Positions 12,376 through 16,429 of a DNA stretch of 64,000 bases are shown here, one piece after another. The DNA is taken from assembly GCF_044647545.1 (NCBI RefSeq), contig NZ_CP172818.1. One strand, given 5' to 3'. Made by a program: the position numbers and the translations under genes. Every line of letters starts with the position of its first letter. Within the stretch, counting starts at the first letter, position 1. Source of the stretch: Escherichia coli. GTDB lineage: Bacteria; Pseudomonadota; Gammaproteobacteria; Enterobacterales; Enterobacteriaceae. The notes under the pieces are model-generated. The model was not told the DNA's origin. It saw nothing but the letters and a program-made list of their open reading frames with translations, and searched no databases.

Positions 12376-13788
<1,413 letters not shown>

Positions 13789-13909
13789 GGTGTTCTGGAA
13801 AGCGCCTCGCATAATCTGAAGAAAACCAATGTAATACGCACATCTGGATTGTTACCGGCCGATGCAGATCCCGGCGTATAGCTGATTCCATTATTCAACA
13901 CTGCGCCAT

Positions 13910-15037
13910 ATGAAGGGACAGATAATGGAATCGCTCTCAGAAGGAACCACAGCAGGCTACCAGCAAATCCACGACGGCATTATTCATCTGGTCGATAGCG
14001 CCCGGACGGAAACGGTACGTAGTGTTAACGCGTTAATGACCGCCACATACTGGGAAATTGGCCGACAAATTGTCGAATTTGAACAAGGTGGCGAGACCAG
14101 GGCTGCGTATGGTGCGCAGCTAATCAAGCGACTATCAAAGGATTTAAGTCTAAGGTATAAGCGTGGGTTTTCCACCAGGAATTTATGGCAGTTTAAGAAT
14201 TTTTATATTTGTTTTCAACGAATTGAAATTGTGCAGACACTGTCTGCACAATTCACCCCCACAATTCGCCAGACACTATCTGGCGAATCTTGCCATTTAG
14301 CGCAACTTGCCAAATCTTTCCCCCTGCCCTGGTCCACTTACGTCCGTTTGCTTTCTGTTAAAAACGCTGACGCTCGTAGCTTTTATGAGAAAGAAACACT
14401 CCGCTGTGGCTGGTCTGCTCGTCAGCTCGAACGGCAAATTGCGACCCAATTTTATGAGCGGACACTACTGTCACATGACAAATCAGCCATGCTGCAACAA
14501 CACGCTCCTGCCGAGACGCATATTCTTCCGCAACGGGCGATACGCGATCCCTTTGTGCTCGAATTTCTGGAATTGAAAGATGAATATTCAGAATCCGATT
14601 TTGAGGAGGCGCTGATCAACCACCTGATGGATTTCATGCTGGAACTTGGGGATGATTTTGCCTTTGTTAGTCGACAGCGAAGGTTACGCATTGATGACAA
14701 CTGGTTTCGTGTCGATCTGCTGTTTTTCCACCGCCGTTTACGCTGCCTGCTAATCGTCGATCTAAAAGTGGGCAAATTCAGCTATAGCGATGCCGGACAG
14801 ATGAATATGTATCTCAACTACGCCAAAGAGCACTGGACGCTACCGGATGAAAATCCGCCCATCGGTCTGATTCTCTGTGCAGAGAAAGGAGTCGGAGAAG
14901 CGCATTATGCACTGGCTGGTTTACCTAACACCGTTCTGGCGAGTGAATATAAGATGCAACTACCTGATGAAAAACGACTCGCGGATGAACTCGTTCGAAC
15001 ACAGGCGGTGTTAGAGGAAGGCTATAGACGCCGTTAA
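13910..15037 (+). CDS. yhcG: DUF1016-family (PD-(D/E)XK nuclease-like) protein YhcG
   Basis: 375-aa ORF; length matches YhcG; contains two of the palindromic repeats described below. Confidence 0.85.
   Translation: MKGQIMESLSEGTTAGYQQIHDGIIHLVDSARTETVRSVNALMTATYWEIGRQIVEFEQGGETRAAYGAQLIKRLSKDLSLRYKRGFSTRNLWQFKNFYICFQRIEIVQTLSAQFTPTIRQTLSGESCHLAQLAKSFPLPWSTYVRLLSVKNADARSFYEKETLRCGWSARQLERQIATQFYERTLLSHDKSAMLQQHAPAETHILPQRAIRDPFVLEFLELKDEYSESDFEEALINHLMDFMLELGDDFAFVSRQRRLRIDDNWFRVDLLFFHRRLRCLLIVDLKVGKFSYSDAGQMNMYLNYAKEHWTLPDENPPIGLILCAEKGVGEAHYALAGLPNTVLASEYKMQLPDEKRLADELVRTQAVLEEGYRRR
14227..14253. repeat. Palindrome copy 1 (aattgtgcagaca-c-tgtctgcacaatt), perfect 13-bp arms, inside yhcG
   Basis: Read directly; shares the core cagacaCtgtctg with copies 2 and 3. 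Confidence 0.9.
14263..14288. repeat. Palindrome copy 2 (aattcgccagaca-c-tatctggcgaat), one arm mismatch, inside yhcG
   Basis: Read directly; 36 bp downstream of copy 1. Confidence 0.85.
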
Positions 15038-15041
15038 TTTC

Positions 15042-15069
15042 AGCGGTTTCGAATTCTCCAGACACTGTC
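15042..15069. repeat. Palindrome copy 3 (gaattctccagaca-c-tgtctggagaatc), immediately 3' of the yhcG stop codon
   Basis: Read directly; same core, non-coding location. Confidence 0.9.
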
Positions 15070-15096
15070 TGGAGAATCTTTAAAACGAACTAAGTT

Positions 15097-16429
<1,333 letters not shown>

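Follow-up and report, generated by a model that had tools for sequence, protein, structure and literature searches.

The gene yhcG, on the + strand at positions 13925–15037 of a 64,000-nucleotide stretch of Escherichia coli DNA (contig NZ_CP172818.1; "the window" below means this whole stretch), encodes a protein of the DUF1016 family, and the locus raises the question of why this protein contains the peptide QTLS twice. The YhcG peptide reads exactly as first quoted, ...FQRIEIVQTLSAQFTPTIRQTLSGESCHLAQLAKSFPLPWSTYVRLL, and both the codon view and the palindrome coordinates bear out the original prediction that each QTLS is encoded by the core of one DNA palindrome. That prediction went on to propose that an extra segment of ~26 residues had arisen by in-frame insertion or duplication of the palindromic element, in a family that otherwise has a single such stretch. 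Positions 14228–14299 form a two-copy, in-frame array of a 36-nt unit. Each unit carries a hairpin (11-bp stem, 3-nt loop) that is ancestral to the family, and the number of units varies between one and four; we consider this account as a whole likely to be right.

Two palindromic units in the yhcG linker

Three palindromes are found at the gene. P1 (14227–14253, centred on C14240) is AATTGTGCAGACA-C-TGTCTGCACAATT, with perfect 13-nt arms, and its fold has a 12-bp stem and a loop of 3 nt; P2 (14264–14288, centred on C14276) is ATTCGCCAGACA-C-TATCTGGCGAAT, with 12-nt arms and one mismatch (A14278). P3 (15053–15077, centred on C15065), ATTCTCCAGACA-C-TGTCTGGAGAAT, has perfect 12-nt arms and starts 15 nt past the yhcG stop codon, within a 43-nt segment (15038–15080, + strand, reading FQRFRILQTLSGES) that is 78% identical to 14213–14252 and is a remnant of the middle of the gene. 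The centres of P1 and P2 are 36 nt, or 12 codons, apart, and this spacing together with the codon view delimits unit 1 at 14228–14263 (+; 12 codons, IVQTLSAQFTPT). Unit 2, the extra copy relative to single-unit orthologues, follows at 14264–14299 (+; IRQTLSGESCHL), as placed by the protein alignment and the codon view.

Chance does not explain P1–P3: three sites in the window match the 13-mer core with no more than one mismatch, where 0.05 are expected. Hairpins of this geometry (11-bp stem, 3-nt loop) number only 8 in the 64 kb, against an expectation of 0.5 from shuffles, and three of the 8 are P1–P3. The P1 region folds with a z-score of -6.5 as RNA (-35.8 kcal/mol) and of -7.7 as DNA. An intrinsic terminator was rejected for P3, and for P1 and P2 as well; a terminator scan calls none of them, and none is followed by a T run. 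Overlapping P1 is a weak sigma-70-like match (TTGAAA, an 18-nt spacer, CACAAT; 14223–14252), no better than in shuffled sequence.

Units 1 and 2 share no more than 66% identity and disagree at each of the three variable stem pairs (GTG/CAC vs CGC/GCG). Tandem Repeats Finder reports no array in the window nor in K-12, because the units are too diverged; the extra copy is therefore not a product of recent slippage. The second unit is an old or a recombinationally imported copy and not a fresh duplication. Compared with a variable-number tandem repeat, the array has the head-to-tail period in a multiple of three (units of 36 nt for the window allele and Pseudocitrobacter, and of 39 nt for K-12) and a copy number that differs among strains and close species; the highly similar units that recent slippage leaves behind are absent.

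Unit number differs among close relatives

In an alignment of close homologues, Salmonella, Citrobacter, Kluyvera and Superficieibacter all read ...IEIPQTLSAE-SSNLIPLAKTFPLPWS and carry one unit, being 12 residues shorter exactly where the window allele has its second palindrome. The arrangement with two QTLS peptides is thus not shared by homologues of other genera, nor is the length the same. The idea of an in-frame extra copy therefore stands, while an insertion of a dispersed element and a fresh duplication do not, given the 66% identity of the units and the confinement of the element to yhcG genes and their remnants described below. The predicted size has to be corrected: the added unit amounts to 12 residues, and the other ~14 (ESCHLAQLAKSFP) are also present in single-unit orthologues. 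This accounts for the match to the Pfam domain DUF1016_N, in which 161 YhcG residues face 136 profile positions; the excess of 25 residues is made up of the 12-residue added unit and the ~14-residue tail common to single-unit orthologues.

Alleles of E. coli and Pseudocitrobacter have one, two or three units, giving proteins of 358, 370 and 382 residues when the unit is 36 nt long and of 349, 362 and 375 residues when it is 39 nt (loci are given here by L and family members by P numbers). The window allele has two units, E. coli P0005 and Pseudocitrobacter P0010 have three, and P0006 has one; the DNA of P0010 (L238) indeed contains three palindromes with 36-nt spacing. The K-12 allele family uses the 39-nt unit, with three palindromes in K-12, one in O157:H7 and two in P0034, and the O157 allele equals the K-12 allele minus exactly 78 nt, which is two 39-nt units. 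Among 5426 complete E. coli genomes, 479 have the window-type two-unit patch and 2854 the K-12-type three-unit patch; 946 lack yhcG and keep one palindrome between gltD and nanQ, and the others have one unit or a truncated yhcG.

These differences sit in a hypervariable patch of ~175 nt (14166–14340, +), delimited by a sliding-identity comparison of three alleles (window, K-12 and O157) and by BLAST breakpoints, which begins ~55 nt upstream of P1 and spans the unit array. Outside the patch E. coli yhcG alleles are 95–100% identical; inside it the window allele is only ~50–65% identical to those of K-12 and O157, and less at the O157 deletion.

The gene is already used as a length marker in the six-locus lineage-specific polymorphism assay (LSPA-6), where its two main alleles reportedly give amplicons of 394 and 472 bp. 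In the typing of E. coli O157:H7 the length of the yhcG amplicon differs among strains (PMC3514354, PMC8733641). The marker concerns the same gene and the same region as the unit array; those papers (PMC3514354, PMC8733641) treat it as an anonymous indel, with no mention of palindromes, units or family-wide conservation. The hairpin units explain these length alleles. Literature searches with the core sequence brought up nothing but eukaryotic short hairpin RNA constructs, with no bacterial context, and the DUF1016/YhcG literature searched mentions no palindrome. While the indel in yhcG is a known typing marker, the hairpin, the covariation of its stem across the family and its connection with the length alleles thus appear to be undescribed.

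The hairpin is conserved across the DUF1016/YhcG family

In the family protein alignment, the linker between the motifs FY..YP and LSWSHY is highly variable in length and often consists of 2–4 repeated, lineage-specific units. We therefore examined the DNA of 80 YhcG relatives from Beta-, Gamma- and Deltaproteobacteria, Acidobacteria, Cyanobacteria, Planctomycetes, Verrucomicrobia, Ignavibacteria, Nitrospirae and others. Linker palindromes are present in 78 of the 80 loci, with one to three in-frame units per gene and 117 units in total; L013 and L083 have apparently four. The common form is 5'-ATT NNN CAGAC (R N Y) GTCTG N'N'N' AAT-3', with the centre at a first codon base. Pairing is seen at positions 2–12 from the centre; position 1 (58 pairs observed, 58.2 expected) and positions from 13 outwards show no covariation, and the element is therefore an 11-bp stem with a 3-nt loop.

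A formal covariation count was made on 123 distinct units (alignment A4; 1353 cells), with 500 shuffles and slid alignments as controls. Paired cells make up 93.7%, compared with 75.2% in the shuffles, and changes on both sides occur in 10 of the 11 pairs. As expected of a conserved hairpin, compensatory changes go far beyond the controls: 229 cells are compensatory vs 62.5±7.5 in shuffles, the covariation score is 0.44 vs 0.10 (at most 0.13 in the slid controls), and none of the 500 shuffles reaches the observed values.

A weakness of these counts is that the sets of 117 and 123 units were partly chosen by complementarity, and three less biased tests were therefore made. When units were selected on the four core pairs only, position 7 was paired in 107 of 143, with 52 expected. 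A pattern that left the NNN positions free found 159 matches in viral and metagenome contigs; NNN is fully complementary in 99 of these (1.6% expected), and those inside YhcG reading frames contain 23 different NNN triplets. Finally, in each of five distant DUF1016 members (37–41% identity), chosen solely on protein data, this site holds a palindrome, with a core of different sequence: TGCCAGACA/TGTCTGGCA, GGGACA/TGTCTC, TCACAC/GTGTGA, TCTCCACA/TGTGGAGA (with 16-nt arms) and CTACACA/TGTGTAG. Variant peptide motifs of the family, among them ISETLSRK, ILSTVSRE, ISATLSRK and ISESLIRK, are translations of doubly compensated stems.

The comparison shows the palindrome to be an ancestral, nucleotide-level feature of DUF1016/YhcG genes, held at one fixed place, in the stretch that encodes a low-confidence loop joining two helices of the N-terminal domain, and the QT[LV]S motif to be a mere translation of it. 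The expectation that the family normally has a single such stretch is correct for Salmonella, Citrobacter, Kluyvera and Superficieibacter, each with one QT[LV]S unit; it does not describe the family, in which the lone QTxS is encoded by the same palindrome and multi-unit linkers arise independently in many phyla.

Pairing in DNA or in RNA

The pattern of changes in the stem suggests in which nucleic acid the pairing is maintained. The G·U tolerance that RNA pairing would lead one to expect is not seen in the 123 units: G·U makes up 12 of the 1353 cells, or 12% of the non-Watson-Crick cells, which is not above chance, and there are 85 other mismatches. The centre base is C in 59 units, G in 48, T in 4 and A in 2 and is thus strand-symmetric, and the loop has a purine on its left and a pyrimidine on its right, varying independently. 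At the P3 site the arms are CTC/GAG in the window, CTG/CAG in K-12 and O157 and CGC/GCG in E. coli without yhcG, with a central G in K-12 and a central C in O157; the arms have been replaced whole and not changed stepwise. The scarcity of G·U, the strand symmetry and the whole-arm swaps favour pairing at the DNA level, as do rearrangement breakpoints, which fall at the edges of hairpins, and we think it probable, with somewhat less assurance than for the array itself, that complementarity is kept in single-stranded DNA hairpins or cruciforms rather than in mRNA.

An apparent excess of A·C over G·T mismatches on the sense strand (28 vs 10) had seemed to point to a hairpin on the antisense strand. 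A re-count with NNN left free gives 28 A·C/C·A vs 8 G·T/T·G, and 21 of these 28 are C·A at one position, reflecting a choice between Glu and Lys codons, mostly in one lineage; the excess was therefore dropped as evidence.

The alternative that survives best, which we rate as possible but distinctly less probable than DNA-level pairing, is an mRNA hairpin: a cis-regulatory stem-loop for ribosome pausing at the domain boundary, for mRNA stability or as the site of an autoregulatory protein, with unit number as a by-product. The element always lies inside the yhcG transcript, including its untranslated regions, or near its ends, which leaves room for a role in RNA; an 11-bp stem with a 3-nt unpaired loop is typical hairpin geometry; and the RNA folds, with the values given for P1, are as significant as the DNA folds. 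It also weighs against DNA-level pairing that a palindrome of 25–27 bp extrudes as a cruciform only with difficulty. Against the mRNA hairpin stand the near absence of G·U, which is not enriched among the non-canonical cells, and the near-equal use of C and G at the centre together with the R..Y loop, a symmetry unexpected for RNA made from one strand. Perfect copies moreover persist in remnants and at orphan sites without an intact gene, and a scan of positions 13700–15300 with the Rfam 15 covariance models gave no match at E up to 1.

How unit number may change and what the hairpin may do

Neighbouring units are direct and, at the same time, inverted repeats of each other, and such repeats would invite slipped-strand mispairing, unequal exchange and the import of diverged tracts. 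We suggest that unit number changes by mispairing or unequal exchange between adjacent palindromes, and that multiples of 12–13 codons would be tolerated because they only lengthen a flexible loop.

As to function, we speculate that the hairpin or cruciform is a putative binding or cleavage site of YhcG itself, used for autoregulation and/or break-induced exchange, since yhcG is the only gene constantly linked to it and the nuclease domain, with its NucS/Hjc-like fold, resembles those of the structure-specific enzymes NucS/EndoMS and Bax1; we regard this as a tentative idea. More doubtful still is the specific scenario in which YhcG, by binding or cutting the hairpin of its own gene, would link two processes, the autoregulation of a defence nuclease that may be toxic and gene conversion induced by breaks. 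If true, such a self-target would account for the hypervariable patch and the growth in unit number as well as for the remnants that end at hairpins and the replacement of cassettes; yhcG would then encode a nuclease and at the same time contain the structure that this nuclease targets, akin in function to systems of homing type and to the REP-RAYT pairs discussed below, and of a new type.

Several observations weigh against the account given here. No slippage event is seen directly, and the units of the window are old and diverged, with no array called by Tandem Repeats Finder. The motif is missing in some family members, among them P0157 and P0217, and in 2 of the 80 loci. Different core types coexist within one gene in L016, L064 and L245, which argues against strict sequence-specific recognition by one protein and hence bears on YhcG as a partner.

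An element with no cellular function would look similar in part. Here the arms would be re-symmetrised by intrastrand template switching (quasipalindrome correction), the units would expand by slippage and the element would survive in a tolerant loop; this fits the compensatory changes being whole-arm swaps even within E. coli, the lack of G·U intermediates, the persistence of copies in gene remnants and the hypervariability of unit number and flanking sequence. We nevertheless think it unlikely that this is the whole explanation. The palindrome keeps to the same position in 78 of 80 loci as well as in each of the five distant members (35–40% protein identity), which is hard to square with neutrality because palindromes are prone to deletion. 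Conservation also extends to the lower stem (ATT/AAT), to the C-G pair that adjoins the loop and to a stem of exactly 11–12 bp.

Remnants, breakpoints and genomic distribution

The ancestral, gene-bound hairpin has also left traces where yhcG is broken or gone. Gene order from gltD to yhcG is the same in Salmonella, Citrobacter and Pseudocitrobacter; the gene is therefore ancestral at this locus, and the empty state found in some E. coli is a deletion. In E. coli without yhcG (L141) a lone perfect palindrome, AATTCGCCAGACAGTGTCTGGCGAATT, matches the internal hairpin of O157 in 28 of 28 nt and has the right flank of P3; to its left is a 13-nt filler, GAGGTAACAATAA, the source of which was not found in any fetched locus. 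P3 and the post-stop remnant are not present in Salmonella, C. koseri and Pseudocitrobacter, and P3 is therefore a scar, specific to E. coli, that an older copy of the mid-gene segment has left.

In strains of the L004 type (CFSAN004176 and similar), yhcG is cut exactly at the right edge of hairpin 3, and its 3' part together with P3 is replaced by ~470 nt (2515–3000 of L004) with a 101-residue open reading frame annotated as "transposase". This reading frame has no Pfam match and offers no link to a hairpin-targeting transposase. The insertion sequences IS629 (L003) and ISKpn26 (L005) have independently destroyed or replaced yhcG; L005 keeps P3 and the last 27 nt of the gene.

On the related viral contigs L114 (4700–6180), L113 (10480–10640) and L112 (8380–8900), a cassette with a Panacea antitoxin and a MazF/PemK-like toxin lies beside a tyrosine integrase and between two ~140-nt remnants of the middle of yhcG, each remnant with two adjacent hairpins. 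The arrangement looks like cassette replacement at the hairpin region. The element thus outlives its gene and marks breakpoints.

The 159 matches to the NNN-free pattern fall into 83 within full YhcG open reading frames, 29 in fragments, 7 nearby and 40 without a recognisable yhcG in the fetched DNA, so that 119 of 159 (75%) are in or beside yhcG genes or fragments, at one homologous position. It is very improbable, then, that a dispersed, miniature mobile palindromic element was inserted in frame into yhcG, after the manner of repetitive extragenic palindromes (REPs) and bacterial interspersed mosaic elements (BIMEs), the Rickettsia palindromic element (RPE) or miniature inverted-repeat transposable elements. 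In-frame palindromic insertions are known from Rickettsia, and the 40 orphan copies, 19 of them with perfect variable arms, would agree with mobility. We reject this origin on account of the confinement to yhcG at one position and of the differing arms of neighbouring units, which are hence not copies of one master element; many of the remaining matches, furthermore, lie beside second hairpins or short remnants. The window itself holds only three copies, all at yhcG; by its distribution in these 64 kb and in the public contigs scanned, the element is not a dispersed repeat.

Nucleotides, not peptide, are conserved

The same DNA is read in different ways. In intact genes, L093, L104 and L106 translate the palindrome in another frame as PEFARQCLTNLSWS (PEFARQCLTN in L093), and L172 reads it as NWADTVCPI in three units. 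Palindrome copies also lie 30–170 nt upstream of yhcG starts in L154, L178, L190 and L013, after the stop codon (P3 of E. coli) and in gene remnants. Codon choice in the units departs strongly from the rest of the same genes: Ile is ATT in 94% vs 29%, Lys is AAA in 99% vs 43%, Thr is ACA or ACG in 98% vs 52%, and Ser is TCT in 59% vs 14%. Conservation thus acts on the nucleotide sequence and not on the peptide. In the AlphaFold2 (AF2) model of YhcG, residues 98–118 (FQRIEIVQTLSAQFTPTIRQT) are coil with a predicted local distance difference score (pLDDT) below 50, between helices 85–97 and 119–130; this low-confidence coil suggests that the protein tolerates whatever the hairpin encodes, extra units included. 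Selection on a QT[LV]S peptide, with the palindromy of the DNA incidental, would account for how widespread QTxS is in the family, yet it is hardly credible and was rejected in view of the other frames within intact genes, the extreme synonymous codon bias, the copies outside reading frames, the residue pairs that covary as base pairing predicts (P-A, R-G, V-A+Q, Q..G vs E..R) and the modelled coil.

The yhcG locus and its product

The gene order in the window is gltD (12388–13788, +), yhcG and then the convergent nanQ-nanK-nanE, with nanQ (yhcH) at 15097–15561 on the - strand. The left neighbour gltD was taken from the list of open reading frames and is conserved, as the synteny with Salmonella, Citrobacter and Pseudocitrobacter shows. 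The coding sequence of yhcG, beginning MESLSE..., is supported by the same list, Pfam and PADLOC; an in-frame ATG upstream, at 13910, is a possible alternative start.

The 3' end of gltD also varies (13780–13800): the product has 466 residues here, ending ...AADGI*, and 472 in other E. coli, Salmonella and Citrobacter, ending ...AADGIMNWLEV. A stretch of ~78 nt in O157, comprising the gltD tail and a GC-rich inverted repeat (CAGCGCCGCC...GGCGCTG), is replaced by ~7 nt in the window.

YhcG matches the Pfam domains DUF1016_N (PF17761; E 5.6e-43, 146.8 bits, gathering cut-off 32.8) and YhcG_C, a PD-(D/E)XK nuclease domain (PF06250; E 1.2e-55, 188.1 bits, cut-off 32.5), and the PADLOC profile hidden Markov model PDC-S02 for a candidate single-gene phage defence (E 1.8e-133); according to the literature found, the PDC-S02 family is a phage-defence candidate only. 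Neither a PDB sequence search nor NCBIfam gave a match, so no solved homologue is known by sequence. A structure search with the AF2 model places the nuclease domains of NucS/EndoMS, Bax1 and Can2 closest among solved folds; the C-terminal domain is thus predicted to have the PD-(D/E)XK nuclease fold, and catalysis is likewise a prediction. The family is large: in a phmmer search more than 10,000 cluster representatives at 50% identity match at E ≤1e-10.

Two alleles have lost a conserved Trp of the family (FPLPWS or LSWSHY): K-12 MG1655 (L001, ~843–850) has Arg (FPLPRS) and the L006 allele Cys (FPLPCS). Given this replacement, the YhcG of the laboratory strain MG1655 may not be fully functional.

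Among the distant DUF1016 genes with the hairpin, that in L245 lies between an N6/N4 methylase and a ResIII helicase, and that in L241 beside a relaxase; these restriction-modification-like and conjugative contexts fit the link reported for the family with restriction-modification loci and mobile elements.

Significance and comparison with known systems

The nucleases of the YhcG/DUF1016 family are uncharacterised although very widespread, and their genes are frequent in mobile elements, in phage-defence islands and at restriction-modification loci; the QTxS hallmark of the family is the shadow of a conserved DNA or RNA hairpin. A linker shaped by nucleic-acid constraints changes how the protein alignment and the Pfam model are to be read, and the hairpin offers a concrete point from which the biology of this orphan defence candidate can be tested. 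The locus is also a clear example of a structure-constrained element in a coding sequence that drives in-frame variation in copy number and marks the breakpoints of rearrangements.

Among known systems, the attC sites of integrons are likewise hairpin DNA defined by structure and flanking exchangeable cassettes, which recalls the L114 cassette beside a tyrosine recombinase; in yhcG, however, no association with an IntI-type integrase and no R''/L''-L'/R' architecture with extrahelical bases is apparent, and the cassette, beside an integrase of phage type, is a single anecdotal case. The template-switch hot spots at quasipalindromes of E. coli, where imperfect palindromes are made perfect by intrastrand templating, would give two-sided changes without G·T intermediates, as in the yhcG hairpins; they represent, however, a mutational mechanism acting in arbitrary sequence and not a conserved element at a fixed position.

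REPs are extragenic and number hundreds per genome, and the REP-associated tyrosine transposase (RAYT) is an HUH/Y1 enzyme. REP/BIME-RAYT systems and the hairpin ends of IS200/IS605 elements resemble the yhcG element in being short, covarying hairpins that are linked to a nuclease-type gene and survive as local clusters. In contrast to REP-RAYT, YhcG is a PD-(D/E)XK protein, the hairpin lies inside its own coding sequence and no mobility is seen.

The RPEs, finally, are mobile repeats in their behaviour, 100–150 bp long and scattered through many genes of a single genus that are unrelated to one another. Like the yhcG element, they are palindromes read in frame that add a peptide segment at a point where the protein can accommodate it; the yhcG element, by comparison, is 25–27 bp long, keeps to one position in one gene family across phyla, and is probably ancestral there.

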